Positions 32,642-64,000 of a DNA stretch of 64,000 nt are shown here, piece after piece (within the stretch, counting starts at the first letter, position 1; each line of letters opens with the position of its first letter). Location: positions 64,001 through 128,000 of the forward strand of contig CAVYSE010000017.1 of assembly GCA_963771075.1 (NCBI GenBank), given 5' to 3'. Position numbers and translations under genes: made by a program. The notes below the pieces were generated by a model. The model was not told the origin of the DNA, made no database searches, and was given only the letters and a program-made list of their open reading frames with translations. The DNA is from a candidate division FCPU426 bacterium. GTDB taxonomy: Bacteria > Oederibacteriota > Muellerivitia > Muellerivitales > Muellerivitaceae.

Positions 32642-32653
32642 TTTCTCACCTTG

Positions 32654-35657: not shown

Positions 35658-37976
35658 TTGAAGGTGCTAAAAATAAATCCAAAGGTTATCTTGCCCAAGA
35701 TCCTTTATCTTTTTGCCTTTTTTTCTTTCATTGTCAGCTTGTTCTATCGATCCAGGGGGTTCCAAACCGAGAGTTTAATATGGCTAATAGGGGGAGTAGT
35801 TCTCGTCGTCCTTAATTTCATCGACCTTTTTAGCATCTTTAATCGAAATTTATGGCAAACCCCCACCCCCCCTAAAGTTCCATCGAATGAACCGGGAAAT
35901 ATCGCGGCCGCCGCACTTTTTATCATCTATATCATATCCATATTTTGGAAACCTCTTCTGCATCCCAAACAATTGTTGGGTGGATATGACATGCAGTTTT
36001 TTTACGCCTACAAATGTTATTGGGCCCAAAGCCTGAAAGATGGCGATCCGGCCCTATGGAACCCCTATTACCATCTGGGCATTCCTTATTGGGGTTGGCC
36101 GATTGTGGGCGCTTGTTCCCCTTTCACACCCCTTTACCTTGTCTTCCCGCCCTCGTTCGCGATCACATTGGAATATGTCATCCATTTATTCCTCTCCGCA
36201 TTTGGTATGTATCTTTTGTTGAGAACGCTAGGAAGCAAATGGACCGGGGGCATCATGGCGGGAATGGCCTATACCTTCGGTTGTTATTTCATGTCCAAGG
36301 TTTACCAAGGCCAGGCTTGGACCCTCTTTGCCGCGGCTTGGATACCCTGGATCATCTGGAGCACGGAAAAATCCATTCAAAACGAAGAGAAAAGACTGTC
36401 TTGGCTGACACTGACCGCTTATTTAACCGCTCTGACCTATTTCGAAGGGCATCCCCAATTAACCGAATACGCCCTGTTAGCCATGGGTTTCTATTGGTTA
36501 GGCGCTTGGATTTTCCGGAGCACTTCTTTCAAAATATTTTTATTCTCAAACTTGGGTTTGGCGGCCGCCTTCCTGGCCCTGACCGCCTTAGCCCTATTTC
36601 CACAGACCGAATATGCCATGTTAACGAATCGTTGGGGATGGCATTACGGAGATATCATGGATAATTGGGTGGCGCCCGACTCCTTGCCCACATTCTTGCT
36701 TCCCTTCCGGGGCTCTCCTTTCGATCCTACGGGTTTCAAAACCGTCAAGTCATACCACGAAACCTGCAATTACATGGGCTATATACCCTTGGCCCTTTTC
36801 TTGTCTGGTCTCATTTATTTTCGCAAAGTCCCTAAAGTTTTGTGGTTTTCCATAACTGCCCTATTTTTCACTCTCTTAGCGATGGGTATCTCCAACCCTG
36901 TTTCCAAGGCTCTTTTTGATTTCTTTTATAACTTCGTCCCGGGGTTCAATCATCACCGCACCATTGGTCGGCTTATGGTGGTGACGACTTTTTTCATGGC
37001 ATGCTCTTCGGGCCTGATGATGGATTACTTCAGGGATTTCTTCAAAAAAAAGCATGGCATTAAAACTCGGTGGATCTTTTATGGGTTATTAGCCCTAACC
37101 CTGGTTGACCTATGGCATTACGGTTACCGGTTCGTGGGTCTGGAAGACCCTGACAAATATTATTCACCATCAATGGTCTTTTCATCAGACAAAGTTTTGA
37201 AAACCGTCCTTGCTGACCCAACCTATCCACGGGTTCAGGGAGAACACGATTTTGCGGTAAACCTTTCTTGTAAATTGACCCAACCTTTATATTGGGAAGA
37301 TACTTACCCCGATAATGAAGGGCGTTACGTGATTGATATGCATGATGATTGGGATACCCCCCTTTCAGACGTCATCAGCCTGAAATACCTCGCTTCCCGG
37401 CCATTGTTCAACAAGCCTACCACCCGGTGGCAACCCTTGGCCGACAATGTGGTTTACAACACGATGGCTTTACCCAGGGCTTTCGTGGTCAGCGGCTACC
37501 GGGTGATGGCTTCCAATATGAAAGAGGACGTGGAACAAATTCGTTTGGGAGAGGTGGATTGCAAAAATGAAGTTCTGCTTTATTCCCAGCCTTCCCAGAT
37601 GCCCCCATCCCAGCCCGGGTATCTTGGTGAGGCTAAAATCACCCACTTCAGCAATAACGAAGTTGATATGGAATGCGCCATCAGCCAACCTGGCATCCTG
37701 TTTTTGTCCGATCCCTTTTTCCCGGGATGGAATGCTTGGGTAAACGGACAAAAAGCTGAAATTCTACGGGCTAATCGGGCTTTTCGGGCCATCGTTTTGC
37801 CCCAAGCCGGTTCCTTCAAGATCAAAATGGCCTATCAACCCGGAAGCCTGAAGGCTGGTATCACGGTTAGCTCCTTAGCATGGCTCGCCGGTGCTTTTAT
37901 ACTTATTCGCGGCAGAAAACGTAAAAAGATAAAACCCGGAAAACGGGAGAATAAAACAAAACGCGGTAGAAAATAG
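35658..37976 (+). CDS. YfhO-family (GT-C) membrane glycosyltransferase
   Basis: LWNPY..GIP, GHPQ, LPRAF, LSDPFFPGWNAWVNG, RANRAFRAI; AGGAGA before TTG. Confidence 0.88.
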   Translation: MKVLKINPKVILPKILYLFAFFSFIVSLFYRSRGFQTESLIWLIGGVVLVVLNFIDLFSIFNRNLWQTPTPPKVPSNEPGNIAAAALFIIYIISIFWKPLLHPKQLLGGYDMQFFYAYKCYWAQSLKDGDPALWNPYYHLGIPYWGWPIVGACSPFTPLYLVFPPSFAITLEYVIHLFLSAFGMYLLLRTLGSKWTGGIMAGMAYTFGCYFMSKVYQGQAWTLFAAAWIPWIIWSTEKSIQNEEKRLSWLTLTAYLTALTYFEGHPQLTEYALLAMGFYWLGAWIFRSTSFKIFLFSNLGLAAAFLALTALALFPQTEYAMLTNRWGWHYGDIMDNWVAPDSLPTFLLPFRGSPFDPTGFKTVKSYHETCNYMGYIPLALFLSGLIYFRKVPKVLWFSITALFFTLLAMGISNPVSKALFDFFYNFVPGFNHHRTIGRLMVVTTFFMACSSGLMMDYFRDFFKKKHGIKTRWIFYGLLALTLVDLWHYGYRFVGLEDPDKYYSPSMVFSSDKVLKTVLADPTYPRVQGEHDFAVNLSCKLTQPLYWEDTYPDNEGRYVIDMHDDWDTPLSDVISLKYLASRPLFNKPTTRWQPLADNVVYNTMALPRAFVVSGYRVMASNMKEDVEQIRLGEVDCKNEVLLYSQPSQMPPSQPGYLGEAKITHFSNNEVDMECAISQPGILFLSDPFFPGWNAWVNGQKAEILRANRAFRAIVLPQAGSFKIKMAYQPGSLKAGITVSSLAWLAGAFILIRGRKRKKIKPGKRENKTKRGRK

Positions 37977-38118
37977 GGGAATTTTTTATCGGATATCCGC
38001 CGCCATTCAGTCCATACCCACCGCCCTGGGTCTCTATGTATAATAAGTCGCCTTTCACACGAGTAGGTTTAAGCCTGTGTTTGTCTTCTTTAAATAAATT
38101 ACCCTCATAGGAGTTTTT

Positions 38119-41091
38119 ATGCCCTTGGCAAGGTACCGAAAATATCTTCCGCCTTTTATTTATTATTTTCTTAATTCTTTATCCCGTTTGAACCTACTAC
38201 TGAAATCGGCTTCCCCCACAAAGGTCTCAAAAAAGAAAGCATCCTCCCGTACCAAGTCCAGGCCAATGCGTAAAATCAAACCTAAAACCATGGAATTTTT
38301 CGATTCCAAAAGATCTTTAATGGTTCTTTTTGCCCTGCTTTTGGCAGCCAAGGGCCAATGGGATTGGGTAGCCGTCGGCCAAAGCAATAGTCTATGGACA
38401 GGTTTGGCCTACTACGCCATTGCGGTTGGGCTGTTCCTTTATACATTTAACTCCTGGAAACAGGAAAATCTTCAAAAAGCCGAAATCAATCCCATCCTGG
38501 AATGTGGACTTTTCGGATTGATCATGCTCATTGCCGCCTTTTTCCGCGTTTACAAGCTGGATGAGATTCCCAACGGAATATTCATGGATCAAGGTTTTGA
38601 GGGCCTGGGCGGTTTGATGATTGGTCATAATGACTTTCACCAACCCGTATATTCCCTCGGGGACCAACCCGTTTTCGAAGTAGGGAAGCCCTTTTGGCAG
38701 CAGCCCTTTTTCATCGGAAAACCGTTGGAAGCTCCCGCCTTCCTGCTTTATCTTCTCGCCGCTTGGTTTAAGTTTTTCCAGCCGAATCAATTCACCTTAT
38801 ATCTTTTCTTCGCTTCCTTGGCCCTGGCTGCCTTTCCCCTTATTTATTGGACCTTCCGTCAAATCGCCGGACCCCGGATGGCCCTTTTGACGCTTTATTT
38901 TTTAGCGGTCATGCGCTGGCATGTGAACTTCAGTCGCAACGGGTTTCCTACCATCGAAGTTCCTTTTTATATGTTTGGAACCCTTGCTTTTCTTCTTTAC
39001 GGCTTTCGAAAGGGGAAAACCTGGGCTTTCTGCGTTTCAGCCGTGTTTTTATCATTGGGGCTTTATACTTACCAGGCCTTCAAGATATTTCCACTCTTGC
39101 TCGTTTCTTACTCTCTGTATGAATTCCTGGGTGATAACCCAAAAGTCCAAAAATTGTTTGAAACCCTTTCAAAAACCAGTCGTAAAACCAAGATGCCGGG
39201 GTGGGTGATTCCCTCCGTTCTTGCCTTGGTTTGCCTGATCATTATTGGTTGCGCGCTTTATTGGCTACCAACCTGGTACCTTTATGTCACCAACCATGCC
39301 CTTCTTTACACTATTGCAAAAGGAACCGTTTTAGTAATAGGCGTAAGCCTAATGGCCTTTACCCTTTACTTGTTTACAGGAAGCAAAAAATTCAAGCTGC
39401 ATTTGCGCCAATTGGGTCTTTTCTTTGGGATTCTCCTGGTTCTCACTTCCCCGATCCTCTTCAACATGTTGAAAACGGGAAGTTTGGGCTCCCGTGAGGG
39501 CTCGGATAATATTCTCGGCACAATCCTTCAGGAACATAGTTTTTACGGACCCGTCTCCAAAATGCTGGGTAAAACCCTTCTGATGGGCAACCGGATGGGA
39601 GACGATAATGAACGCCACAATATGCCCAACCATCGGATGTTGGATGACATTTCCGGAGTCCTTCTCATAATGGGATTTTTTTACTCCCTCCATCGCATCA
39701 ACCGACGAAAATATTTTTACGCACTCGCTGGATTGGGAGTCATGAGTTTGGCCTGTCTTCTCTCGGTTGTTCCGGCCCACGCTAACCGCCTATTGGCAAC
39801 CACTCCCTTCCTATGCCTCTTAATCTCCGCGCCCCTATCGGCGATTTGGGGACGGGCCAGGAATAAATGGGGTGGGTTCGGCGAAATGGTCTTTCTCTTT
39901 TTACTGCTCCCTCCCCTGTTGCTTGTGGGTTTTTTGAATTATCGCGTTTATTTCATCGAGGAACCCAAAGATGGGGCCTATTGGAATTCAAGCTATTGGG
40001 GCGGTTATTCCTTTGACGCCAGCCAAGCGGGAAAAATAATCGCGCAGAACGGGGACGCTTACGACTATTGCCTGACCAAACGGTACTTTTACCACAATAC
40101 CGTCAAATTCCTAAGTTATGGGTTGAAAGATCACGTCAAGCTTTTTACCCTGCCCGAAGGACTGGCACCCCTGCAAGCCAACGCCAATAGGGGCCTGCTC
40201 TTCATCCTCATGAATGAGCAAAAAGGGCTCGCCCAAAACATTCAATCCCTCTACCCTCACAGCCAGTTTGAGCCGGTCCCGAACCCCAATGGCAACCCCC
40301 TGGTTTATTGTGTCCGGGTGCCTGCCAGTGACGTGGCCCAAGCCAAGGGACTTTTCATGCAAACTTCGACTGGCATCACCACTCAATTGCCTGCATTTCC
40401 GGAGGGCCTGCCTTCCGGGCCATTCAAGGCTTCCTTACGTGGGACGGTCTATCTGGATCGCACCGCGGTTTACTCCTTTGAAGCGAAGTCCAATGCCTCC
40501 GTTTCCTGGTCCATCGGAACCCATAAGATCCGGTCGGGGCAAACCTTGAGTTTTGCGAAAGGGTTTTACCGGGTCGAGATCAATTTGAACGCGTCCAATG
40601 CGGGACCCGTTTCCCTCCAATTGCTTTCGAAAGCGGGGATTGAATCTCCCGTCGGGCTTGGCAACGACCGTTTCACCACGCTGGACATGGCGAGAGGTTT
40701 GAAAGGCTCCTACTTCGACCAAGATAGCGTCGTGGGTGTTCCCCTAGTACAACAATGGGATCCTTTCCTTAACTTTTACGACAGCTCCGACTTCCCCTAC
40801 CTGAACACGAGGGAATCCATCCTGTGGGAGGGCCAATTGAACGCTCCCACCACCGGACTCTACAAGTTCCTCGCCCGAACTGATGAATACACGAAAGTTC
40901 TCATCGACGGGAAAATCGTTGTCCCTTGGAGTCGTGGCCCCTCCGGGTCTTCTTTCTTAAAGGCTGGCCCCCATCATTTTCAGGTCGTTTTCCAGAAAAT
41001 TTTGGGTCCCAGTTTGACCTTATGTTGGACGCCGCCCGGTTCCAAGGATATGGAAGTCATCCCTAACCGTTATTTTGGGTACACCGACTGA
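38119..41091 (+). CDS. ArnT/PMT-like (GT39/GT83-like) glycosyltransferase with tandem C-terminal PA14-like domains
   Basis: FRVYKLDEIPNGIFMDQG, WHVNFSR, GLYTYQA; PA14-like GLKGSYF..WEGQLNAPTTGLYKF..IDGK. Confidence 0.85.
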   Translation: MPLARYRKYLPPFIYYFLNSLSRLNLLLKSASPTKVSKKKASSRTKSRPMRKIKPKTMEFFDSKRSLMVLFALLLAAKGQWDWVAVGQSNSLWTGLAYYAIAVGLFLYTFNSWKQENLQKAEINPILECGLFGLIMLIAAFFRVYKLDEIPNGIFMDQGFEGLGGLMIGHNDFHQPVYSLGDQPVFEVGKPFWQQPFFIGKPLEAPAFLLYLLAAWFKFFQPNQFTLYLFFASLALAAFPLIYWTFRQIAGPRMALLTLYFLAVMRWHVNFSRNGFPTIEVPFYMFGTLAFLLYGFRKGKTWAFCVSAVFLSLGLYTYQAFKIFPLLLVSYSLYEFLGDNPKVQKLFETLSKTSRKTKMPGWVIPSVLALVCLIIIGCALYWLPTWYLYVTNHALLYTIAKGTVLVIGVSLMAFTLYLFTGSKKFKLHLRQLGLFFGILLVLTSPILFNMLKTGSLGSREGSDNILGTILQEHSFYGPVSKMLGKTLLMGNRMGDDNERHNMPNHRMLDDISGVLLIMGFFYSLHRINRRKYFYALAGLGVMSLACLLSVVPAHANRLLATTPFLCLLISAPLSAIWGRARNKWGGFGEMVFLFLLLPPLLLVGFLNYRVYFIEEPKDGAYWNSSYWGGYSFDASQAGKIIAQNGDAYDYCLTKRYFYHNTVKFLSYGLKDHVKLFTLPEGLAPLQANANRGLLFILMNEQKGLAQNIQSLYPHSQFEPVPNPNGNPLVYCVRVPASDVAQAKGLFMQTSTGITTQLPAFPEGLPSGPFKASLRGTVYLDRTAVYSFEAKSNASVSWSIGTHKIRSGQTLSFAKGFYRVEINLNASNAGPVSLQLLSKAGIESPVGLGNDRFTTLDMARGLKGSYFDQDSVVGVPLVQQWDPFLNFYDSSDFPYLNTRESILWEGQLNAPTTGLYKFLARTDEYTKVLIDGKIVVPWSRGPSGSSFLKAGPHHFQVVFQKILGPSLTLCWTPPGSKDMEVIPNRYFGYTD

Positions 41092-41143
41092 TTCAAGCAA
41101 ATCGCCGGAACCTATGCCGTAATTCTTATCAAGGAGACACTGA

Positions 41144-43783: not shown

Positions 43784-43802
43784 TTCGTTAAACAATAATT
43801 AT

Positions 43803-43839
43803 AAAAAAAGGGGGGGAGCCTGAGCTCCCCCCTTTTTTT
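43803..43839. terminator. Bidirectional intrinsic terminator
   Basis: A-run, GGGGGGAGC/GCTCCCCCC stem, T-run, between convergent genes. Confidence 0.85.
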
Positions 43840-43883
43840 ATTAAACCAACCTTTCGGGACTATTCTAAGTCCCTTGCTACCAT

Positions 43884-44888: not shown

Positions 44889-44969
44889 ATCTTCCTCCCT
44901 AACCCTGGCTTGATAATCCCTCATAAACAGAAAGTCATCTTAAACCAACCCTTTAAAAACACGCAAGAA

Positions 44970-45722: not shown

Positions 45723-45883
45723 ACGATCAAATCTCCCGAATAAATGTTGATCTCCCCGGACAAGTCCAGGGCTCTTAAATCAAAAATCAAGCTTCGATTT
45801 CATGCCTTTTGAATGGACACCCTTCATCCTCGACCAATGCCGGAGATTACAGATCAAGTGACCAAGAAATTTGGATTCAAAGT

Positions 45884-47011: not shown

Positions 47012-47077
47012 GGTTTTATCGGTTCCTTAGGTTTGAGACAGACAAGGCAGGATTATACCTTGGCCCTTCCATACCCT

Positions 47078-48151
47078 CTAGTGATTTACCTTTTGGGCGG
47101 CCGCGTAAAGCAAAAGGCCGTTGACAACCCCTATGCTTTTCAATTCAAAGCCCGCTTTTTGAAGAGCCTCACCCAGCCGACGCCGGGTAAAATGGTGGAT
47201 ATGACCGCAGCGGTAGCGGTGGTATCGGCTTCCCCGCAAATATCCCATATAGAGACAGTTCAAATTAAACAGGATAAAAAAGGGGCCTAAGAAATAATCA
47301 TAAGGAACCGTGATCAGAAAGGTCCCCTCCTTCTTGAGAACCCTGTTAACTTCCGCCAGGACCGCCTCCAAGTTAAACAGGTGCTCCAACACTTCACTCA
47401 TCAATACCAGATCTAGGCTTTGGGGTTTTAAACCGGTCATGGAAAGGTCGGCGCATACCTTATAATCCTCTAGCCTTCCCTGCCGTTTGGCGAATTGGAG
47501 CATTTTGGAATTGATATCCACCCCAAAAACCGGCAGGTGCTGGGTGTTCCAAAAGCAATTGCCACAGCCCAAGTCGGCCATCTTCATGCCTTTTTTGTAA
47601 TAGGCACCGACATGGGAATTGAGCCGCTCGTACCGGGAACGATGGTACCAGGCCCGGAAACGGCTGACCCTGGCCTCGTCGGTCATCCCATCATAGTAAT
47701 CCTCATCCATTTCTCGGTATTCCACCTGCGCCATTCGGGCCGAACTGAAAGTGGAGATGCGATTCAAAAGGGCGTTGGATAAGGCCAAAAGGAAAAGGCA
47801 GGAGATAAGGGAGACGAGAAAGGGCCATTGGAGAGTTCTCATCAAAAACCATAGGAGCATGGAGCTTCCCGCCGAGACACAGAGGCTCATGGCGAGATGG
47901 ACTGGAAGGGAGGTACGCATCCTGATCTCTTGATTCACGTAAACAACACGGTAATAAACGAAATGGAAAGCCTGATTGAGGAATGTTCCCAGGAAAAAGG
48001 AGATGAAAGGGGACCAGGCATTGGAGGTGAAAATGAAAAGGCCGATCCAAACGGTTCCCAGATTGACCCCTAGGCCTAAAAAACCGCCCAGCAGGAATAT
48101 TAGGACAGCGGGATAGCGCCAACGGTGAACAACCTTGTGCTCCGGCATCAT
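47078..48151 (-). CDS. GtrA-like membrane domain fused to class I SAM methyltransferase
   Basis: About four N-terminal TM helices; C-terminal ADLGCG, GVDIN, SEVLEHL, LITVP. Confidence 0.7.
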   Translation of the reverse strand: MMPEHKVVHRWRYPAVLIFLLGGFLGLGVNLGTVWIGLFIFTSNAWSPFISFFLGTFLNQAFHFVYYRVVYVNQEIRMRTSLPVHLAMSLCVSAGSSMLLWFLMRTLQWPFLVSLISCLFLLALSNALLNRISTFSSARMAQVEYREMDEDYYDGMTDEARVSRFRAWYHRSRYERLNSHVGAYYKKGMKMADLGCGNCFWNTQHLPVFGVDINSKMLQFAKRQGRLEDYKVCADLSMTGLKPQSLDLVLMSEVLEHLFNLEAVLAEVNRVLKKEGTFLITVPYDYFLGPFFILFNLNCLYMGYLRGSRYHRYRCGHIHHFTRRRLGEALQKAGFELKSIGVVNGLLLYAAAQKVNH

Positions 48152-52115: not shown

Positions 52116-52126
52116 CCGATCATTTC

Positions 52127-52957
52127 CTAATAGGATACGATGAGCCCGGTTTCCAGGGGAAACAGATTGACCGGGGAATCCGTATAAGCCACGTTCGCGA
52201 ACCGGGGAGATGTCATGGCCCATAGTCCCCTGCCCTGGACAAAAATCTCCATTCCGTTAAGAGCCTTAAAACTAAGACCCAGGCCTCCTTCCAAAAGGAA
52301 ATCCACCTCGCTACCGTTGATGGGCACCGTCACCGTTTGATAGGTAGTGTCCACCAAGGGGATCGTGCTTCGATCTTCGTTGTAGGTTAAACCCGGACCC
52401 AAAAGGACAAAAGGCGATAGGGGGCCGGTAAGAATCCGGTAACGCACAATTCCGGCTAAGCCGATCAACATATAATTATTATTGTTCGTCAAACCCGCAT
52501 TTTTATTGTTGAACTGGTCTAAGTTGAAATCAATCCAAAGGGATAAGGGGTCGGAAACCTTAAGACCCATTCCCAAGCCCAAATGGAACGCTGTGGAATA
52601 GGCTTCTTGCAAATGAGAGCTTAAAGGAATTCCCGCCCCTACGCTAATGAGGGAAAGCCAAACCCCCTGTTTGTACCGTAAATCCTCCGGCCGCACCGGT
52701 GTGGGGCTCGCGACCACCACCCAATCCTGAAGTTTGACCTTTTCACCGATGGTGGGGGTAAATGCTTTTTCCGGTTCATTCCGAACCTCGGAAAGTGATT
52801 CCCCTACACTTGCAGACCCCTGGGTTGGCAAAGAAGCGGATGGGGTCGCACCCAGGGGTTTGGGGGTAGGAGTGGGGCTGGATAATGTTTGGCCCCAAAC
52901 ACACCCCCAGGCCAATAGGCAGAAAAGGGAAACTGAAGCTACCAGTCGGGAGCTCAA
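52127..52957 (-). CDS. Outer-membrane beta-barrel protein with Pro/Thr/Ser-rich N-terminal linker
   Basis: Signal peptide, SSPTPTP linker, amphipathic strands (SPFVLLGPGL, LEGGLGLSF), terminal aromatic residue. Confidence 0.7.
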   Translation of the reverse strand: MSSRLVASVSLFCLLAWGCVWGQTLSSPTPTPKPLGATPSASLPTQGSASVGESLSEVRNEPEKAFTPTIGEKVKLQDWVVVASPTPVRPEDLRYKQGVWLSLISVGAGIPLSSHLQEAYSTAFHLGLGMGLKVSDPLSLWIDFNLDQFNNKNAGLTNNNNYMLIGLAGIVRYRILTGPLSPFVLLGPGLTYNEDRSTIPLVDTTYQTVTVPINGSEVDFLLEGGLGLSFKALNGMEIFVQGRGLWAMTSPRFANVAYTDSPVNLFPLETGLIVSY

Positions 52958-53241
52958 GTCTTTTCCACTCGGGAAACCAACCGAATTTGGCTTAATACGG
53001 CATCGACTGATTCACATTTCTCGAGGGCCCCAAAGTAGATTGACGCTTTTCCCTTTTCATGAACCCGCATGGTTAATTCGGCTGCCATTTGCAAGGGGTA
53101 TCCGGTCGCCTTTTGGATTTGAAGGATGACTTCATCAAAACCGTGAACATCATCGTTAAAAAGCACCACCTGCCAAGGATTATTCAATTTCGTTTCTTCG
53201 ATCGTTCTATTTGTTGTCTTTTCGATGGGCTTGTTTTTCAT
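52954..53241 (-). CDS. clpS: ATP-dependent Clp protease adaptor ClpS
   Basis: WQVVLFNDDVH.FDEV, VHEKGKA; start 53241 or 53271. Confidence 0.85.
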   Translation of the reverse strand: MKNKPIEKTTNRTIEETKLNNPWQVVLFNDDVHGFDEVILQIQKATGYPLQMAAELTMRVHEKGKASIYFGALEKCESVDAVLSQIRLVSRVEKT

Positions 53242-53257
53242 GTTCCGGGATTGATCC

Positions 53258-54169
53258 TTAACCCCTTTCAATAAAAGCTTTGATTTTTCTTTTCAACGAT
53301 GCCTGGTCTAAGCCCACCCGTTGAAGCATATAATTCCTAGACCCGGTGATTCCCTCCGGCATCTCACAAACCCCCATGGCCTTGAAGTTGACCGCCTTTC
53401 CCAAGGAAGCGATTGTTTCAGCCACAAGGGAACTCAACCCGCCAGGAAGGTAATGCTCCTCGATGGAAATAACATTTTTGAATCCATGGATTAGCTTTTC
53501 CAGTGCCAGTGTGGGAGGTGGATTGATCGTCGCAACGATCCCGACGGTGGCGTTTCCCAATGTATTGGCCACTTCCGCCACATCGCACGCCATGCCGCCG
53601 GTGGAAAGCAATAGCACCTCCCGTCCGGACCCCACGATCTCCACGGAACCCATTGAAAAGCGACCGTTTAAACCCTCCACTTTCCTGTCCCCTCCCTTTC
53701 CAATCCGGAAATACAAGGGGCCGGGATGGTCGTAAGTGGCATAGAGGGCGTTTCGGGTTTGATCCGGGTCGGCTGGCGCGATCACCCCCAAACCCGGTTG
53801 AACGCGCATGATGGAAAAATCTTCCAGCGAATAGTGGGAGGTGCCCGAATGCCCGTAGGAAAAACCGCCGCCGATTCCAATGATCCGCACCGGCAATTTA
53901 TGCAACACGGGACCGTTTCGGATTTGTTCATAACCTCTCATGGAGGCAAAAGTTGCGATGGAATAAACATAAGGGATCCAACCATCCAGGGCCAATCCCG
54001 TTGCCAAATTCACCATGTTCGCCTCGGCAATCCCCACATTAAAGAATCGGTCCGGATAGGCGGCCGCGTATTTTTCCAACACCATGAAACCCAGGTCCCC
54101 CGTAAGGAGACATATGCGTTTGTCTTGCGCGGATATCCTTAACAAAGTTTCGACAAAGGCGGTTCTCAA
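53258..54169 (-). CDS. Transketolase-like, C-terminal (pyrimidine-binding) subunit
   Basis: TGDLG, RFFNVGIAEANM, YEQIR, SHYSLED, IEEH..GGL. Confidence 0.92.
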   Translation of the reverse strand: MRTAFVETLLRISAQDKRICLLTGDLGFMVLEKYAAAYPDRFFNVGIAEANMVNLATGLALDGWIPYVYSIATFASMRGYEQIRNGPVLHKLPVRIIGIGGGFSYGHSGTSHYSLEDFSIMRVQPGLGVIAPADPDQTRNALYATYDHPGPLYFRIGKGGDRKVEGLNGRFSMGSVEIVGSGREVLLLSTGGMACDVAEVANTLGNATVGIVATINPPPTLALEKLIHGFKNVISIEEHYLPGGLSSLVAETIASLGKAVNFKAMGVCEMPEGITGSRNYMLQRVGLDQASLKRKIKAFIERG

Positions 54170-54942
54170 GGCTGATCCTCCAGCTCCCGGATCGCCTGAA
54201 GGGATTGCTCTTCATTAAGGGGATAATAATGCCATTCGAATTTGCCCTCCATGAAGGAAACACCTTTTCCCCCCACAGTCCGGGCTATCAAAACACGTGG
54301 CCGATCCCCGACTGGTGCGGAAAAGGCTTTTTCCAAGGCGCTTTGATCGTGGCCGTCCACCCTCTGGGTTTGCCATCCGAACGAACCCCATCGTTCCTCC
54401 AAGGGTTCTAGGTCCAGCACATCCCGGGTTTTCCCAAAGGCTTGAAGCCCATTGGCGTCTACGATCGCGGTTAGATTGGATAACCGATGATGGGCGGCGA
54501 ACATGACGGCTTCCCAAACCGACCCCTCATCGCACTCCCCGTCGCTCAAAAGGATAAAAACCCTTTTTTGTTGATTTCGCAATTTCGCCGAGAGCGCCAA
54601 TCCAGCTCCCACTGACAACCCATTTCCTAAGGAACCGGTGGTCAATTCAACACCCGGGATTCCGCGTTCGGGATGCACGCCAAGCCGGGAACCGTCCTGG
54701 CAATAGGTTTCAAGCTCCTCTCGCGTAATCAGGCCTTTCAAGTAAAGGGCCGCGTAAAGGGCCAAGCCCGCGTGGCCTTTGGAAAGGATGAATCGGTCGC
54801 GGAATGGTTCGGGCCCTTCCCGTAGGATCTTTTCGTACAAAACCGCCACCAAATCGCATACACAAAGGGCCGATGCGATATGGCCTACTTTCGCGATACG
54901 CGAAATTTCGATCACGATCTTGCGCAATTCCAACCCCGTCAT
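54166..54942 (-). CDS. Transketolase-like, N-terminal (ThDP-binding) subunit
   Basis: GHIASA, DRFILSKGH, TGSLGNG, SDGECDEG..N, GKG. Confidence 0.92.
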   Translation of the reverse strand: MTGLELRKIVIEISRIAKVGHIASALCVCDLVAVLYEKILREGPEPFRDRFILSKGHAGLALYAALYLKGLITREELETYCQDGSRLGVHPERGIPGVELTTGSLGNGLSVGAGLALSAKLRNQQKRVFILLSDGECDEGSVWEAVMFAAHHRLSNLTAIVDANGLQAFGKTRDVLDLEPLEERWGSFGWQTQRVDGHDQSALEKAFSAPVGDRPRVLIARTVGGKGVSFMEGKFEWHYYPLNEEQSLQAIRELEDQP

Positions 54943-54964
54943 GGGAACTCCTCTTTCCAGCGGA

Positions 54965-55804
54965 TCAGTCCAGTTTCATAGAATCGGTATAGGACAAAGA
55001 ATTGATGTTTTTGCCTAATTTATATATTTGATAGGTCGGCCCACCCTTGCATCCCATCACCAAAACGAGATAACGGAAACCTAACACGCGGATCACTTGC
55101 CTGGCAATCACGGGGCAGTCATCCTTGGGCTTGGGGTTTTTCAGTTTGGCCAGGAAAGACGAGTGGATTTTATCGACCGTGAAATCCATTCCGGACGGAT
55201 CCTCTTCGCTAGCCTGGGGTTGATCCTTGGCCGCCGTATTCGGCGGCACGGAAACAAACAACACCCATTCCAACACTTCAGCCGCAGTATCCCTGGAAAA
55301 CTTGGAGGTCACCTTTCTGAGCGGTTTGGTGTCAATTTTAAAATCGATCCCATATTCGCCATCAGCCCCGTCGTAATAGGCCTGATAGCCGGTCGGTTTC
55401 GTGACACCCAAAAACTTGATTTCATCCAAGGCCGGAGCGTAGCCGAAAGCCCATAATTTCTGACCAGGAGGAGGGAGCAGGTTTTGCCGGGCTGTGTTGT
55501 TTTTTAATTTCGGCGGGTGCTCCCGCATTAATTTGCTCAAGTCCTTTTCCTTTGGATGAAGATTGGGGATCAAGCCGATCTTTAAAAGGAATTTTTTGAT
55601 GTCGAGTTGGATAGCCGGGTCATACAAACCCTTTAATCGCTGAACGGGGGCTGTTTGAATCAATTGGCAATGACGAAACGCAAAAAAGGCAGGTTGGCTC
55701 AAAGTGTTTCCGGCAATTAAGGATCCGGCGGCGGACAAAATCCAAAACACCCCCAGTACCTGGAAGAACCAAAGGCGAATATAACGTTGGCTGGAGTGGG
55801 TCAA
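54965..55804 (-). CDS. Hypothetical exported protein
   Basis: 279-aa ORF with N-terminal hydrophobic segment; no family recognised. Confidence 0.6.
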   Translation of the reverse strand: MTHSSQRYIRLWFFQVLGVFWILSAAGSLIAGNTLSQPAFFAFRHCQLIQTAPVQRLKGLYDPAIQLDIKKFLLKIGLIPNLHPKEKDLSKLMREHPPKLKNNTARQNLLPPPGQKLWAFGYAPALDEIKFLGVTKPTGYQAYYDGADGEYGIDFKIDTKPLRKVTSKFSRDTAAEVLEWVLFVSVPPNTAAKDQPQASEEDPSGMDFTVDKIHSSFLAKLKNPKPKDDCPVIARQVIRVLGFRYLVLVMGCKGGPTYQIYKLGKNINSLSYTDSMKLD

Positions 55805-56113
55805 TCTAACCTCTACGGGATCATTCTAACCTTATTTGGACGCGCTAAGGTTCCCAAGACTGTTCATAATTTTAAACAAAAGAGGCAAAGTAGGAAAACG
55901 ATGTTTTTCTGGAAGAAATTGCTCCGGGAGGCTTTATGGATTCCGTGATAAGGATGAATAACGTAAAACTTTTGCCTTCCGGACGAACCACTTTTCATCT
56001 TTATTAAAATGACGATTCACCAAATCAACCCAACGGATCAAGTCGCCTCGTTATAACTTGGTGGTTAAAAGCGTTTCAAAGCAAAGAATACAAAGTGTTT
56101 CCAATTACGATTT

Positions 56114-56854: not shown

Positions 56855-56984
56855 TCATTTTTCTCATACTTTCAAAAGATGAACCGCCGGGTCCAAACGA
56901 CTATCCATGACAGTTTACTAGCCTGATATAAACGAAACACCGAATTAAAGGTGGAAATGAGCCCGGCTTACCCCCGAACGTTTC

Positions 56985-58031: not shown

Positions 58032-58076
58032 AATTCACCTCGTGGACTTAATAAAAACGTTTTTTAAGAAGGATAC

Positions 58077-58105
58077 GTTATAAAAGTTTTTCTGCTCTCT
58101 TTCAA
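58077..58105 (-). promoter_or_regulatory. Putative sigma70 promoter for NHL gene
   Basis: TTGAAA-17-TATAAC, about 45 bp upstream of ATG 58031. Confidence 0.6.
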
Positions 58106-58300
58106 TGCTTAATCCGCGTAAGGGGGTCAAAAAAAGACGGATTAACCCGGTTTCTTGGGGTCTGATGGGGGTGAATGGCCTTTTCAGCTGGATTTTTTCA
58201 CCGGGCGCCGATCTCGAACAACCTTCCCGCGGGTCCAGTCGTTGCGAAGCCATGTCCCCCTTTATCCAACCGCCCGAGGAGATTTGCGACGAGGGAAAAT

Positions 58301-61126
58301 TTAGAGATTAAACGAATTCCAAATGGATTTTTCCGTTCCCTTGGGGGCGCTTTCCTGTCGAATGAGAATATCAGGAAGCTTCTGGGACTTTTGATAGCAA
58401 GTCACCACCTTCAACCGGTGGTCTCCGGCCTCCAGAGGGATTACTTTTCGGAGTTCCAGCGGGGAGGCAAGAACGTAGCCATCGGGGTATCGGTTAAACC
58501 GTGCAAAAAAAGCGTCCATCCATTCATGCCCATCGATCCAAATTTTGGTTCTCCCATCGGCCTTCAGGTTCACCTCATATTTTCCGCCCTTCTCCATATG
58601 GAACTTTCCCTCCACTTGGACCGCCTCGGTATCCATGTTGATGGGTGGAGCGGTGGCATCGGTCACGCTGACGGCTCGGTCCTGAATGTCCAGGATTCCA
58701 AATCCCAAGCCGGACTTGCCGGAAGCATAGCGGCGCTCCCAAAATGGCGCGGTGATGGGTTTGACCTCAAAGAGCGGCTCCTGCGGAACCGGGGGAAGGG
58801 GTTTGCCGGGTTGCGCCGCTCGTCCACTCGTGATCCGGGCGTATCTCTTTTGTGCTTTCGAGTAAAGTTCCGTCGCGTTGGAAATGTCCGTTACCGGAAT
58901 CTGGCACCGTAGGGCCAGGGCGATTTCTCCCGCGACCGGATCAGTCCCTTTTACGGGATTAAACTGGGCTGCGGGGGTTTCTTTTTGGATTCGATCCTTG
59001 GTCGCGGAATCCGCGGCCTCAAAATAAACCACCACATCGTGGCCTTTGGTTTCTTTCGGGTCTTGATACAAGAAATTGGTGGGATGAAGAACACAAGCCG
59101 GATGGCCTTCATAGAGGGCCCCCGCGACCGATCCTCCGACGCCATCGGTCAAAAAGACAAGATTTCCGTGGTCGATGTCCTGGCGGGCTTGCCGTTCCAC
59201 CGCGATATAGCGGTCCTGATATTTCAAAAACCATTGGCCATAAATATGTTGTATATCCACTCGGACCGTCCAGACCGCAAACCCCGCAAGGAAGAGGCAG
59301 AAGAGTTTTGTTTCCCATCGGTTCGGGGAATTTTGTGGCAAACGCGACCATAGCTCTTCCAATCCCATCGCCCCCAGAACCAGGAATGGGACCACACAAC
59401 CGATCAATCTTCCTGTGTGGGCCTGCTGGGTGAGGAAGTAGGGGGTGATCCCCGCCAGCGCCGTCAAAAGCAGGCCGATTCTTTCCCAGCTCAGCCTGGC
59501 TAAGATCACGGCCAAACCCAGGGCAATGAGGACTATTTCCGAATATCCAAAAAAGGAGTCTTTCGGGGCCAGCATGTCCAACCGGTCGGTTCCGTTAAAA
59601 AAGAGGGTTTGGAGGGCCAGCACGGCTTCCGAGTAGATCCGCGAGAAGTAACCCATCCATCCAATTCCCCCCGGAGTCACGATATAGGCCTGCACATTCT
59701 TCACGAGGGACTCATGGGTCATGACCGGAAAGGTGAGGATCACAGACATCCAGGACCCCGCGAGCCAGCCGGTCCAGGTTCCACTTTGCGACCAGTCGCG
59801 TGGTTTTCGAAGGATGTAAACGGCAAAAACCAGGTAGAGGGCGAGGAGAACCGCCGGGGGCCCACAGTAAACCCAATCGCAGAGATAAGTAAACAAATTG
59901 TTCGCCGGGAAAACGCCGATGGTATAAAGAAAGTAAAGTGTGAAGTAGGCGAGGGTGGTTAAGAGCAGGATTTTGGCGGAAAAATCGAGCCGCCGTTCCT
60001 TGCTATCTCGGGCCCAAACCCAGACCCATGACACGAACAGGAAAAATGGAATGAAAATCCTGTAGGGAGTGTAGGTGTAGGCGCCAAATGAAAGGGCCAA
60101 GCCCCATTGAACAAAACGAGCGGGAGTGGGTTTGCGCAGGAGGCGCACAAAAAACAACAGGGCGAGGGCCACCCCCAAGGACAGGCTTTGGAGGCTCAGT
60201 CCCTGAAGGGTTCTCATGATTAGGGGTTTGCTGACAGCTCCCAAAGCTGCGGCCCAGAGGCCCAACCGGCGATTCAGTAGTTCCTTACCGATGAGGTATA
60301 GGGCACAAATGGTCGCCAGGTCCACGGCGACCCCGGCTATCCTCTGGGTAACGAGTGAAGTCATCGAGGGAAAAAGTTTCCATAGAAAAACGCAAAGATA
60401 AGCGAAAAAGGGTTCCCGGTAGCCCAGGGGGAAAACAAAGGCATCCCCAAAATCGTTGAGGTCCGCAACCCTTCGCACATCCAGGATTTCGGTCGCTTGG
60501 ACTGACCCATAGGCCCCCATCGGTGAAAACCCTTGATAGAGGCAAAGATAAGCCCCCAATCCCAAAAAGAGGGTGAGCAAACCATAAGCCACAGGCGCCG
60601 AAAGATCGGTGCCAGACGATCTTTCCGGCAAGATCCTGAAACCAATGATCAATCCAACCCATAAAAACAACAAGACGGGGTAAGATTCCTTAAAGGGAAG
60701 CCGCAAGGCCAAGGGCATCATCCAGCTAAAACTGGGGAAACTGATCAGGAGGATTGAAAAACAGGCTATCAGCAAAAGAAAGAGGATGGCAGCTCCCCCG
60801 GTTAAACGGGACGTGTCGATGAAAATCTTTTGGAAACCGGGGATTCGGCGGATGGGAATGCGCCCCTGGCGATACAGCTGGATCATGAGGATCACGAGGG
60901 CGGTGGTCAGAAGAATCTTGGTGGAGGCATTGAGATCATGGCGGGTCAGGAGAAAGACCGCTCCCGCCAGGAGCGCCACGGGAAGCCCCAGTTCCCGAAA
61001 ATCGAAAGAGGGCTTTTTCGCGCCGGGCTGACCCGATGGGGAAAGAGGCCGGGAATCCGGAGGAAGACGATCCGGTCTTTCCCCTTTTGATGTTTTTTTC
61101 TTTTTAGGCGAAGGCATAGGGCTCAT
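58301..61126 (-). CDS. ArnT/PMT-like glycosyltransferase with C-terminal PA14-like domain
   Basis: REPFFAYL, LYLIGKELL.RRLGLWAAAL, GAYTYTPYR; C-terminal GKYEVNLKADGRTKIWIDG..LEAGDHRLKV. Confidence 0.8.
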   Translation of the reverse strand: MSPMPSPKKKKTSKGERPDRLPPDSRPLSPSGQPGAKKPSFDFRELGLPVALLAGAVFLLTRHDLNASTKILLTTALVILMIQLYRQGRIPIRRIPGFQKIFIDTSRLTGGAAILFLLLIACFSILLISFPSFSWMMPLALRLPFKESYPVLLFLWVGLIIGFRILPERSSGTDLSAPVAYGLLTLFLGLGAYLCLYQGFSPMGAYGSVQATEILDVRRVADLNDFGDAFVFPLGYREPFFAYLCVFLWKLFPSMTSLVTQRIAGVAVDLATICALYLIGKELLNRRLGLWAAALGAVSKPLIMRTLQGLSLQSLSLGVALALLFFVRLLRKPTPARFVQWGLALSFGAYTYTPYRIFIPFFLFVSWVWVWARDSKERRLDFSAKILLLTTLAYFTLYFLYTIGVFPANNLFTYLCDWVYCGPPAVLLALYLVFAVYILRKPRDWSQSGTWTGWLAGSWMSVILTFPVMTHESLVKNVQAYIVTPGGIGWMGYFSRIYSEAVLALQTLFFNGTDRLDMLAPKDSFFGYSEIVLIALGLAVILARLSWERIGLLLTALAGITPYFLTQQAHTGRLIGCVVPFLVLGAMGLEELWSRLPQNSPNRWETKLFCLFLAGFAVWTVRVDIQHIYGQWFLKYQDRYIAVERQARQDIDHGNLVFLTDGVGGSVAGALYEGHPACVLHPTNFLYQDPKETKGHDVVVYFEAADSATKDRIQKETPAAQFNPVKGTDPVAGEIALALRCQIPVTDISNATELYSKAQKRYARITSGRAAQPGKPLPPVPQEPLFEVKPITAPFWERRYASGKSGLGFGILDIQDRAVSVTDATAPPINMDTEAVQVEGKFHMEKGGKYEVNLKADGRTKIWIDGHEWMDAFFARFNRYPDGYVLASPLELRKVIPLEAGDHRLKVVTCYQKSQKLPDILIRQESAPKGTEKSIWNSFNL

Positions 61127-61183
61127 AACCTCTTAAAAGTCTATGCTGAGTTCTCATCTCCCGGCATGTTAAAGTCAGGCCTT

Positions 61184-61945
61184 TCAGGCCGGGGGCAACC
61201 GGTAAACCCAAACGTTATAGCTTCCCGCGACGACCAAATAACCCTCCGGCGTCACGCAAAGATATTTCGCGTCCAAATAAGTCCGGTTCACGTCCGGTTT
61301 CTCGACCGTCAGGTCTCCCAGAAATTGGCCAGTGGCCCCCGAAAAGACCTGGATGAAATTATAGTTCCCATACCCCACATAAACGCGATCCTGCTTGTCC
61401 AAGGCGATGGTCCAGGGTTTTTCCTTGAGTTGGAGGCGGTACATAAACACGCCCTTGGAATCGATGACCTTGAGCCTCAAGTAATCGGACTCCACCTGGT
61501 AAGTACGCCCATTCACGGGCTCCGTTATGGAGTTTTCTGGATTGAAGGTGCCGAACTTATCGATCATTTCGGAATTCAGGAACTGCCCCTTTTGATCGAA
61601 TAGAAAAACGGTTTTCCCATCGGCGCTCAACACGGCAATCTTGCCCTCCCCGGGACAACAAATCCCCCGTATGGTGAGCGGCCCGGATTTTTGACCCGTT
61701 CCGTCGAAATGGCACATGAGATAAACCATGATCTTCGGGTGGGGCCAGCAACTAACCCCTCCCTGGTTAAAACGGTCCCAACCAAAACTGCAAGCCAATA
61801 AAAGGGGGATGCCGATCACCCAGGGCATCAGTCGGCTCCACAAAGACAAGGAAGCAGGAGGGGATAGGTTTTCCACGGGAAGGATTGGGGATTCCGGTAC
61901 GGTGGAAGCGGCGTTGGTTTTAGAGGTGTTTTTTTGTTTATTCAT
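61184..61945 (-). CDS. Short membrane-anchored NHL-repeat protein
   Basis: One TM; IALDKQDRVYV, FIQVFS.ATGQFLGDL closely match 56985-58031. Confidence 0.78.
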   Translation of the reverse strand: MNKQKNTSKTNAASTVPESPILPVENLSPPASLSLWSRLMPWVIGIPLLLACSFGWDRFNQGGVSCWPHPKIMVYLMCHFDGTGQKSGPLTIRGICCPGEGKIAVLSADGKTVFLFDQKGQFLNSEMIDKFGTFNPENSITEPVNGRTYQVESDYLRLKVIDSKGVFMYRLQLKEKPWTIALDKQDRVYVGYGNYNFIQVFSGATGQFLGDLTVEKPDVNRTYLDAKYLCVTPEGYLVVAGSYNVWVYRLPPA

Positions 61946-62215
61946 TCTTTTTTAATCAGGACGGCCGAATAGGAGAAAAAGCCAAGTTATTATCCTTAAT
62001 CCTTAAAAAGATTGCCAGCTTGAAATGGCCGAGCGGCCTTGGTTCATTACAAGGAGGAATTGCCGGACCTGCGCTTTACACTGTCCGCTTCAACGCTTTA
62101 CAATGTGACTACCGATAGGCTTTCGCGATCCTGATTAAGACGCGGATTCTTTTTCAACTTTATCAAAATTGAGAGGGCAGACTCTCTCGAATCGAACACT
62201 TCGCCCCGGGATCCT

Positions 62216-64000
62216 ATGCCGCGTCCATTAAAAAAATATCAACCCGACTCGAACCGAAGTTCAACCACTGGACAACCGGCGGGAGAAAATCTGAACCAGG
62301 CCCCGTCCCCCCACCCCAAATCCCCCTGGGATATTCCGATTTACGTCCTGATGGGCTTGTCCTTCCTCTTGTTGTTCCTCCGAAAGACCGGGTGGGGAGA
62401 AGATCTCTTGGCCCTTTCCATCCTTTTATTCTTTACGAAAAACAGCTTGGTTCGATGGCTGGCCAAGCCCTTGCGCTGGCTCTTCTTCCTCACCCCCTTC
62501 AAGCTCTTTATCTTGCTTCTGTTATGCTGGACGGGGTTTTCGCTAGTTTTGTTGACCTTCCCCTCCCACCGCTGGATGATCCCCCAGGCCACCGCCCTCC
62601 CCTTTCAATACTCACTGGAGGCGATGTTCGCCTGTTGGGCGGGAATCGTTGTGATCATGAAGCTCTTCCCCTCCAGTTCCACAGTCCCCAAGGATCTTTC
62701 TCCCTGGACAGCCGGGTTCTGGCTCCTTCTCATCCTGGGCGTGGATGCCTATTTGATCTTCTACAACGTGGACAAGCCCATTGGGGCGGCCTCGGAGGAC
62801 ACCGTGGTTTTTTCGGCCTTTGCCCGGCTGGTGTTCGACCTGAAAGATTACCGTTTCTTTTTCAACGGCGGCGCAGGCAACAGCTGGCAGCCTTTCTACC
62901 AATGGCTAATGAATTTGCTTTGGTACGTGAACCCGGATACCCCGGGAGTCCTCCTGGAAAGGATCACTTCCGCGTGCGTGAACCTTGCCATCGTGATCTT
63001 TCTATACCTGGCCGGCAAGGAAGCCGCCGGAAGACGGGTCGGGGTCTTCGCGGCAGGACTCGCCACGATCTGCCTGCCCCTTCTGACCAAAACCCTCGCC
63101 TGCCAGCACGGCAACACCCACACCCTCTTTGTCGCCCTGTCCCTTTGGCTATTCTTCCGGACTCTCCGCTCCCCCAAACTCATTAATTTTTTGCTTTGGG
63201 GAACGTCGGTGGCCCTGGGTATATACGCCTATATCATGTTCAGGCCCCTAGTCCCGCTCTTTGTTTTCAGCTCCCTTCTCTGGATCTATTTGAAACGAAA
63301 GGAAGAACGCGTCATTGATAAATCCGTCCACTTGGCTGTTTTCCTGACCCTCTTGATCTTCTTCTTTTACATCTTCTTTACCAACCACCTTTACGCGACC
63401 GACAACGACCTGGCCCGCATGGTCAACGTCTTCGGGCCATGGCTGCCCTGCATGGTTGTGGGTCTCTTTGTGGGGATCGTCCTTGCCTCCGCCCCACGCC
63501 TGATGTCCGTCGCCGACCGGTATCCGGGTCTGCTGGGTTGGGTGGCCGGTACCTGGATCTGCATGATCATTTCCTTCCCTCAGATGGCGAATCCCCACGA
63601 GCTATGGAACATGGTCTCGGCGGGAGCCTCCGGCAGGCCCATGACCTTCAAATCCGTCCAGGTTTACACCTACTTCTTTGATGTTCATTCCTGCGATTGG
63701 ATCAACCTGCATTTCCCCAACGATTCCTTTTTCGGTTTCACCGAATTGATATTCGGTGCGCTCGGTCTGGCCCTTGCGCTGGTTCGGCCCAACCTGAACC
63801 GGGTTTACCTCCTCCTGGCATTTCTATCGACTTTCGGGGTCTGGCTTTTGTCCGAATCCACCCACTCGGAGCGAATGATGGTTTGCGTTCCCCCCTTCCT
63901 GTTGCTTGGCGCCATGGGTGCGGGGCAGGTTTGGGACTGGATCACCCTGGCCACCCGAAGCGTCTTGGCCCGGGTCATCGCCGCAGTTTTCCTGGTGGGC
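62216..64000 (+). CDS. ArnT/PMT-like glycosyltransferase, paralog of 58301-61126; truncated by window end (absent from ORF track)
   Basis: Manual translation of several segments in the frame of ATG 62216: LYLAGKEAAGRRVGVFAAGL, DSFFGFTE, THSERMMVCVPPFLLLGAMG. These match the 58301 protein, and I saw no stop in the segments read. Confidence 0.82.
   Translation, partial: MPRPLKKYQPDSNRSSTTGQPAGENLNQAPSPHPKSPWDIPIYVLMGLSFLLLFLRKTGWGEDLLALSILLFFTKNSLVRWLAKPLRWLFFLTPFKLFILLLLCWTGFSLVLLTFPSHRWMIPQATALPFQYSLEAMFACWAGIVVIMKLFPSSSTVPKDLSPWTAGFWLLLILGVDAYLIFYNVDKPIGAASEDTVVFSAFARLVFDLKDYRFFFNGGAGNSWQPFYQWLMNLLWYVNPDTPGVLLERITSACVNLAIVIFLYLAGKEAAGRRVGVFAAGLATICLPLLTKTLACQHGNTHTLFVALSLWLFFRTLRSPKLINFLLWGTSVALGIYAYIMFRPLVPLFVFSSLLWIYLKRKEERVIDKSVHLAVFLTLLIFFFYIFFTNHLYATDNDLARMVNVFGPWLPCMVVGLFVGIVLASAPRLMSVADRYPGLLGWVAGTWICMIISFPQMANPHELWNMVSAGASGRPMTFKSVQVYTYFFDVHSCDWINLHFPNDSFFGFTELIFGALGLALALVRPNLNRVYLLLAFLSTFGVWLLSESTHSERMMVCVPPFLLLGAMGAGQVWDWITLATRSVLARVIAAVFLVG

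Follow-up and report, generated by a model that had tools for sequence, protein, structure and literature searches.

What is made by a run of genes in which large GT-C glycosyltransferases, several of them ending in PA14 domains, lie among membrane-anchored NHL propellers and genes for sugar donors, and to what is the product attached? The question is raised by the second half of a 64,000-nucleotide stretch (the window; G000:C17:64001-128000) from the genome of a candidate division FCPU426 bacterium (G000; 4.39 Mb, 97% complete), where, together with the sequence just past its end, six GT-C genes from four families, a YfhO-like gene counted, lie within 32 kb. The genes and the cluster they form are real, conserved and uncharacterised. 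We read the cluster as one periplasmic glycosylation line with the Thr/Pro stalks of secreted proteins as its most likely acceptor, an explanation to which, taken whole, we give slightly less than an even chance; that the chemistry is lipid-linked periplasmic glycosylation is very probable. GT1 to GT4 designate GT-C genes of the cluster (GT2-family and GT9 name glycosyltransferase families, a separate sense); family A is the GT1/GT2 type and family B the GT3/GT4 type. Counts of GT-C and NHL linkage are lower bounds because calls of open reading frames (ORFs) and local hidden Markov models miss some GT-C and NHL genes, and one genome, G084, was excluded from every count.

All ORFs named in a first-pass annotation of the window exist where it had placed them, and the two paralog pairs that it proposed hold: GT1 and GT2 share 38-42% identity, GT3 and GT4 29%, and blastp between the pairs gave nothing at E<1e-3. 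Its assignment of the membrane domains to GT-C is borne out for GT2 by an AF2 model (pLDDT 89, pTM 0.85) that joins a helical membrane core to an alpha/beta middle domain and a pair of beta-sandwiches and is matched in Foldseek by the tandem PA14 of RsgI3 (6QE7) and then by STT3, ArnT, AglB, PglB, EmbA/C, AftD and ALG9/12; the other GTs were assigned through PMT_2 matches and 8-14 hydrophobic segments. Pfam recovered PMT_2, PA14, NHL (except in NHL3) and YfhO, the last in the gene to which that name had been given. In profile searches of the PDB the full-length profile returned PA14 matches only, and the GT-domain profile returned ArnT as the best solved match (E 6.5e-6). An acidic residue stands in the first external loop (EL1) of GT1 and GT2 (DQ; R..P.G..MDQ in GT1) and of GT4 (ED, in ASED). 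D151 of GT2 is conserved in 96/97 family-A members and aligns with the DE motif of ArnT, at D55 (taken as chain position 58 minus an assumed 3-residue tag offset); DE itself occupies EL1 in 67/97 members. The EL1 motif of family B is YWDD, its second Asp being kept in 94% of 51 members. From this fold and the neighbouring GT2-family synthases, the GT-Cs likely use polyprenyl-phosphate-sugar donors.

Neither family is confined to this locus. The family-A GT-C domain comprises 10,203 clusters at 50% identity (E<=1e-30), a figure that may include neighbouring GT-C families, and its best 150 representatives carry PA14 in 114 cases and NHL in 39; the searches that we ran found no characterised member. 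Family B was present in 18/31 genomes, every one from the host's own family. By our own profiles G000 holds about 45 GT-C genes, and there are about 13 YfhO-like genes in this genome; YfhO-like genes also adjoin PA14-bearing GTs in several relatives. Among the top family-A representatives, some proteins (P0173, P0174, P0176 and others) have two to four tandem family-A-like GT-C domains, some of the doubles being perhaps one split domain.

PA14 tails had been described on three GTs; these stand, and the count was too low, GT4 also ending in PA14 past the window. The PA14 fold is supported by sequence and by fold, through Pfam and through 6QE7/6QDI, with two modules each in GT1 and GT2. Human B4GALNT3 likewise carries a PA14 module on a glycosyltransferase, although it is a Golgi nucleotide-sugar enzyme rather than a GT-C; PMC13018970 describes this module as a lectin required for activity on glycoproteins and models it with Ca at D189-D190, an Asp-Asp pair that is not kept in the cluster.

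The NHL1 model (pLDDT 90) combines a long N-terminal helix with a six-bladed NHL propeller, its best matches being the NHL domains of TRIM2, Thin and Brat (E 1e-19 to 1e-17). Lys and Arg are more numerous before the helix than after it in 36/41 members of the NHL subfamily, so by the positive-inside rule the propeller would be periplasmic. TRIM NHL domains bind RNA, and by analogy with them the conserved Trp, Tyr, Arg and Glu of the subfamily would lie on a ligand-binding face. Catalytic NHL propellers of the PAL type have conserved His metal ligands; no conserved metal-binding His was found in columns of at least 70% (against NHL2) or at least 90% (A2), a single His appearing in the majority line only. 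In NHL3 the anchor is weak (hydropathy 1.48) and about 95 aa of propeller are missing, and the 253-aa length is retained in two congeners, G001 and G003.

Linkage between these propellers and the GT-Cs is extensive. Within G000, 5/5 subfamily NHL genes lie within two genes of a GT-C, as against 1/34 other NHL ORFs and 141/3940 non-GT-C genes. Among 56 matches to NHL2 in 30 relatives, the 38 with E<1e-17 lie within 1 kb of a GT-C in 17 cases and within 3 kb in 26, or in 34 when a DPM-like synthase is accepted as neighbour; for the 18 weaker matches the 3-kb count with a GT-C is 8. Of 61 genomes of the host phylum, 45 carry family A (E<1e-60); the NHL profile (E<1e-40) matches in 43/45 of those and in 0/16 of the rest. 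A tree of 172 NHL rows (spans <190 aa, 7/39 in G000, were left out) places NHL1-3 in a 41-row clade (SH-aLRT 100), 38 rows of which lie near GT-C or DPM-like synthase genes; it groups 26/27 domains fused to GT-Cs (95) and sets generic NHL apart (87). Searched singly, NHL2 retrieves mostly generic NHL proteins, and Atlas returns generic NHL clusters. Single proteins with the layout GT-C+PA14+PA14+NHL occur in 15/67 genome loci, all labelled Chloroflexota, and Pfam confirms GT-C+PA14+NHL in P0108, P0113 and one L059 protein; NHL is also fused to PA14-less GT-Cs and to TIGR03663 proteins. Blade motifs of the window clade recur in fused domains (DxW in 11/27, FYGPRG-like in 9/27) and in 0/51 and 0/51 generic NHL, the patterns having been derived from the window clade, for which reason the fair contrast is fused versus generic only.

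The association of GT-C and NHL foreseen in the first-pass annotation is thus conserved across the phylum and extends to fusions in Chloroflexota, and the propellers are probably part of the glycosylation pathway. The same annotation had each NHL protein abutting a GT gene; each does adjoin one, but the arrangement differs, NHL1 being convergent with GT2 (100 bp) and NHL2 and NHL3 co-directional flanks of GT3 (269 and 57 bp). Its fixed, repeated GT-PA14-NHL module found no support in that form. The neighbours of NHL genes vary (family A, family B, YfhO, DUF2723, DUF2298 or a lipid-sugar synthase, in either orientation), NHL genes are fewer than GT genes (2 against 8 in the G018:C19 array), fusions include the PA14-less GT-Cs above, and four single-PA14 family-A paralogs in G000, that is 4/8 of its PA14-bearing GT-Cs, have no NHL neighbour. 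Because partner and orientation vary, the unit is the cluster; one-to-one pairing was not supported. Since NHL is fused to the enzyme elsewhere, a role as acceptor seems less likely for it than a role as helper. A second GT-C cluster, conserved across the phylum, lies at G000:C1:129361-141118 (L215). It encodes a 955-aa PMT_2 protein, a DPM-like GT2-family enzyme, a pair of single-pass NHL propellers and a pair of Chlor_Arch_YYY/DUF2298 proteins that score above the TIGR03662 cut-off; TIGR03662 being named for Chloroflexi and archaea, L215 adds a further host group to it.

Donor-synthesis genes had been noted between the GTs, and genes of this type are present: two GT2-family synthase-like genes, an epimerase, a transketolase and methyltransferases. 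The two synthase-like genes (one DPM-like, one GtrB/PgfS-like) resemble polyprenyl-phosphate-sugar synthases below equivalog cut-offs; the PgfS model matches the epimerase-GT2-family fusion at E 1e-64 with 219 bits, the cut-off being 500. In the gene at 47078, GtrA_DPMS_TM (PF04138) spans the whole model in 6/9 orthologs, all below cut-off (best E 0.0028), and the Atlas GtrA score of 0.89 for the N-terminal 140 aa is a lead only; the product is a putative flippase-methyltransferase fusion, which the earlier annotation had not named. The split transketolase likely serves the synthesis of branched or higher-carbon sugars. Across the host family, in a survey of loci selected by GT or NHL matches and partly overlapping, the DPM-like gene, GT9, the 47078 gene and the methyltransferase at 48148 recur near arrays, and the epimerase-GtrB fusion and split transketolase do so in some relatives only. 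Directly upstream of the cluster, 29075-34880 carries ahcY, metK and a sugar ABC transporter; these SAM-cycle genes (ahcY, metK) may supply the four methyltransferases, and the transporter's binding protein lies next to arrays in 5 fetched loci.

As to the acceptor, Thr-rich proteins number 114 in G000, the longest of 2993 aa. They contain 27,525 Thr and make up about 9% of called residues, and 83 of them have a sorting-tail-like end by a loose pattern; 4/7 tails tested exceed the cut-off for type A of the type IX secretion system (T9SS). T9SS tails occur in 61/61 genomes of the host phylum, which lies outside Bacteroidota. The Thr-Pro-Thr pattern has at least 3 matches in 45/45 family-A genomes, and at least 20 in 42 of them; among the 16 genomes without family A it has 0 matches in 15 and 2 in one. 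A 30-genome repeat scan, not independent evidence, included 15 genomes labelled Chloroflexota, 13 of which had at least 7 matches, no background having been drawn for Chloroflexota; its other genomes include several that may be from the host phylum. LpxC was found in 0/5 Chloroflexota genomes with the fused form, all incomplete metagenome-assembled genomes, which makes lipid A unlikely as a shared acceptor; PMC13319060 agrees on Chloroflexota without LpxC.

The line that we propose would run as follows. The epimerase, split transketolase, GT9 and methyltransferases, families that are seen, would yield unusual O-methylated sugars, which the two GT2-family enzymes would load on polyprenyl phosphate and the GtrA-like domain, weakly homologous, may flip. 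The first sugar would be added to Thr by a priming GT-C, for which the TMEM260-like gene just past the window is a candidate, and the PA14-bearing GT-Cs, whose fold and Asp are seen in GT2, would extend or decorate the glycan by means of the EL1 Asp. The NHL propeller, in keeping with its linkage and fusions, would be a helper that binds a ligand without catalysis, tethered through its own anchor in this genome and through fusion to the enzyme in Chloroflexota. A bolder version appears rather unlikely: mucin-type O-glycosylation common to this lineage and Chloroflexota, using lipid-linked single sugars only, with GT-C priming on Thr-Pro-Thr stalks of >100 secreted proteins, extension by PA14-GT-Cs with sugars methylated at the flippase-methyltransferase fusion, and a dedicated NHL family, either fused or anchored in the membrane, that reads the substrate.

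A number of observations weigh against the proposed line. GT3 carries YGSV in place of the family-B YWDD, thus without the EL1 Asp, and is possibly inactive. The Asp-Asp calcium/sugar motif is degenerate in the C-terminal PA14 (D in 23/97 and 40/97 family-A members; TDEY, TDEF, ADGR and NDSR at the site in the C-terminal PA14 of the four GTs), and calcium-dependent sugar binding should consequently not be assumed; the reading of a growing glycan by PA14, proposed in the first-pass annotation, is conjectural. NHL1 and NHL2 lack the subfamily Trp (DxW), and NHL2 also the FYGPRG Arg; with NHL3 shortened, the genus thus carries diverged NHL copies. In the NHL tree the fused domains join a second solo type (G000:C1) weakly (83) and are not sister to the window clade; an origin of NHL1-3 as a direct split of the Chloroflexota fusion was not supported. 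The fused-domain profile also ranks NHL1 and NHL2 under several unrelated NHL proteins of G000. The 16 genomes without family A, NHL and repeats are perhaps one clade: an RpoB tree of 38 of the 61 phylum genomes requires 2 changes, and monophyly is not rejected (AU p 0.15). In the Acidobacteriota control, the phylum of G049 (119 genomes, G049 and G084 left out), family A at E<1e-30 occurs in 2/9 repeat-rich and 6/110 repeat-poor genomes, a weak contrast, and three of the repeat-richest genomes have no family-A match; the sole full-length GT+PA14 match among the 119 genomes is accompanied by 8 repeats. Repeat counts in G020 and G027 are near control. Thr-rich genes of G000 are not enriched near its GT-C genes (6/114 vs 135/3826, p 0.30). 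Finally, G000 makes lipopolysaccharide (LPS), as LpxC and the heptose genes and GT9 of the window indicate, so the acceptor may be a lipid. With a possible single-lineage split, a weak control and no clustering of Thr-rich with GT-C genes, a protein acceptor is a lead whose chances are evenly balanced, not a finding, and the Thr/Pro stalks of secreted proteins in particular are named as acceptor only tentatively.

The same chemistry could instead act stepwise, through many GT-Cs, on a lipid-anchored or wall-linked glycan, be it a lipoglycan like lipoarabinomannan or arabinan, an extension of the LPS core or an anchor glycan for secreted proteins. We regard this as possible but doubtful. Arrays in which as many as 8 GT-C paralogs bear tails of a carbohydrate-binding type are reminiscent of Emb and AftD, which are among the structural matches, the conserved core includes the heptosyltransferase-like GT9, and LPS genes accompany the large GT-C complement of G000; yet LPS is unlikely to be an acceptor shared with the Chloroflexota carriers, in which LpxC was not found, the stalks co-occur with family A in the host phylum, and a TMEM260-like gene borders the cluster in this genome and in several relatives, its human homolog being a protein O-mannosyltransferase (PMC10214176). 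Addition of single sugars to lipid A phosphates by ArnT-like enzymes has far less to recommend it and is highly improbable: ArnT is the best solved sequence match and among the best by fold, lipid A genes are present in G000 and an ArnC-like GT2-family gene in the cluster, but the family profile has no equivalents of K85 and K203, the family is widespread among Chloroflexota, where LpxC was found in none of the carriers tested, and 8 paralogs per genome would exceed the few phosphates of lipid A.

It is also conceivable, though improbable, that the GT-Cs glycosylate something and that the NHL genes travel as passengers with an island of envelope genes and have a separate role, such as a hydrolase or lyase activity of their own. 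The varying partners and orientations would fit such passengers, as would the GT-Cs without NHL neighbour, the 12/38 close NHL relatives with no GT-C detected within 3 kb (some at contig ends) and the unresolved deep NHL tree. Passengers would hardly be expected, however, to be fused to three or more GT-C types (PA14-bearing family A, a PA14-less family A-like type, and TIGR03663), to share blade motifs absent from the 51 generic NHL, to track family A across the phylum or to lack a conserved His able to bind a catalytic metal.

Set beside known systems, the proposed line has partial precedents. GtrA, GtrB and a GT-C make up a three-component layout, and the cluster is likely a lipid-linked system of this kind expanded to a multi-GT-C line, by analogy with mycobacterial arabinan or endoplasmic reticulum glycan assembly. 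The streptococcal Pgf (PgfS, PgfE, PgfM1/M2) and GtrB/PgtC2 systems resemble it in lipid-sugar synthase, epimerase, GT-C and, on the weak match seen here, GtrA-like domain, and candidate Thr-rich disordered acceptors exist here; PgfS/PgfM1 and GtrB/PgtC2 glycosylate Ser/Thr-rich disordered regions (PMC12041528). Those systems have one or two GT-Cs whereas the cluster has six from four families, and it goes beyond them in its PA14 tails, NHL helpers, four methyltransferases, GT9 and diderm host with T9SS-type tails. Mycobacterial AftD and EmbA/B/C (6W98, 7BVC, 7BVE) also join a GT-C core to extracytoplasmic beta-sandwich modules and come as several paralogs, serving one envelope glycan in mycobacteria. 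They differ in having carbohydrate-binding modules in place of PA14, and structural similarity is low (TM 0.23-0.32). No NHL partner is known for AftD or Emb.

ArnT (GT83; 5EZM/5F15) is the closest solved GT-C to the GT2 gene by sequence, with the EL1 Asp aligned. However, K85 and K203, required in vivo (PMC8698208), are replaced by a/q in the family profile, the cluster GTs add middle and PA14 domains, and some hosts are genomes in which LpxC was not found; membership in ArnT was rejected on the two lysines and on lipid A (LpxC) not being present in all hosts. TMEM260/DUF2723 and the PMT O-mannosyltransferases (PMC10214176, PMC8698208) share the PMT_2-type core and EL1 acidic motif with the cluster. 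The cluster itself ends in a TMEM260-like+TPR gene; unlike PMT (GT39), the GTs of the window have no PF02366 match, only PMT_2, and show DQ/ED/SV at the position of DE. PMT enzymes carry MIR domains, and the cluster GTs have PA14 in place of MIR or TPR. With Agl23 (TIGR03663) and Chlor_Arch_YYY (TIGR03662/DUF2298) the same NHL subfamily co-occurs, fused in Chloroflexota and solo at G000:C1; membership of GT1 and GT2 in Agl23/TIGR03663 was rejected (20.9 and 28 bits, cut-off 126), and Agl23 has been reported to be a flippase (PMC11182771).

Table 1. Features of the cluster, in window coordinates (window end, 64000)
Feature	Position	Strand	Basis
YfhO-like GT-C, 772 aa	35658..37976	+	Pfam YfhO E 9e-10 (C-terminal 80 aa only), DUF6044 E 5e-5
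GT1: family-A GT-C, middle alpha/beta domain, two PA14, 990 aa	38119..41091	+	Pfam PMT_2 and PA14 over cut-offs
GT2: family-A GT-C, middle domain, two PA14, 879 aa	41144..43783	+	Pfam PMT_2 and PA14 over cut-offs; AF2 model
Hairpin, terminator-like score on both strands, between convergent GT2 and NHL1	43810..43832	.	Consensus scan only
NHL1: type II membrane anchor, six-bladed NHL propeller, 346 aa	43884..44924	-	Pfam; model
DPM-like GT2-family, likely polyprenyl-phosphate-sugar synthase, 250 aa	44970..45722	-	Similarity; kept beside GT9, NHL, family-A GT
GT9 (heptosyltransferase-like), 375 aa	45884..47011	-	Conserved in cluster; 20 matches in fetched loci, overlapping loci included
GtrA-like four-helix flippase domain (putative) fused to class I methyltransferase, 357 aa	47078..48151	-	Weak GtrA match; Pfam for methyltransferase
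Class I SAM methyltransferase, 262 aa	48148..48936	-	
NAD-dependent epimerase/dehydratase fused to GtrB/PgfS/ArnC-like GT2-family, 675 aa	49165..51192	+	PgfS model E 1e-64
Class I SAM methyltransferase, 308 aa	51189..52115	+	
Split transketolase (C half 53258-54169, N half 54166-54942)	53258..54942	-	
Class I SAM methyltransferase, 246 aa	56114..56854	-	
NHL2: type II anchored NHL propeller, 348 aa	56985..58031	-	
GT3: family-B GT-C, PA14, 941 aa	58301..61126	-	PMT_2 E 0.003, PA14 E 1.3e-4, both below cut-offs
NHL3: shortened propeller, 253 aa	61184..61945	-	Paralogy; no Pfam NHL match
GT4: family-B GT-C, PA14, 891 aa	62216..64891 (window ends 64000)	+	PMT_2; PA14 E 0.0026
TMEM260-like (DUF2723)+TPR GT-C	65032..67110 (beyond window)		Pfam

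Within the cluster, 52127-55804 also holds ClpS and two genes that lie near arrays in one congener only, one of outer membrane protein (OMP) beta-barrel-like type and one hypothetical (279 aa). The nearest named relatives of the GT2 gene are in public contigs labelled Ca. Firestonebacteria or Ca. Goldiibacteriota, and MetK is 71-72% identical to that of two genomes from deposits of this type. The host is a diderm, with LpxC in its genome and heptose, GT9, ABC-exporter and PorV-like genes earlier in the window: ADP-heptose/LPS-type genes occupy 12611-23775 (SIS isomerase, PfkB kinase, cytidylyltransferase-like, HAD phosphatase, GT9, ABC exporter), and 26103-27257 encodes a member of the PorV/PorQ family (match to NF033709 at E 5e-9, below cut-off). 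The region 4536-11120 carries genes of NrfD-like, ResB-like and cytochrome c assembly type. Beyond the window, G000:C17:136902-168020 (window coordinates 72902-104020) is a 15.5-kb inverted duplication of 94% identity reaching the contig end, genuine or a two-strain assembly, with PTS genes, rpoN, an amidohydrolase, a 1490-aa Thr-rich protein and an inositol-phosphate-synthase-like gene.

We found no published work on the GT-C/PA14/NHL architecture in the literature searched, subscription journals not covered. Three features are new: an NHL subfamily of separate, membrane-anchored proteins in a diderm phylum, the putative fusion of a GtrA-like domain with a methyltransferase, and the joint occurrence of the system with secreted proteins that bear Thr/Pro stalks. 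The envelopes of Chloroflexota are described as multilayered and chemically undefined (PMC13319060). If our explanation is true, it would identify the enzymes and donors that make a widespread envelope glycan, together with a helper and candidate acceptors, and could be tested directly in cultured Anaerolineae or Caldilineaceae. NHL propellers and PA14 would then join the accessory modules of GT-C enzymes, and the flippase-methyltransferase fusion would provide a route to methylate sugars on their lipid carrier.

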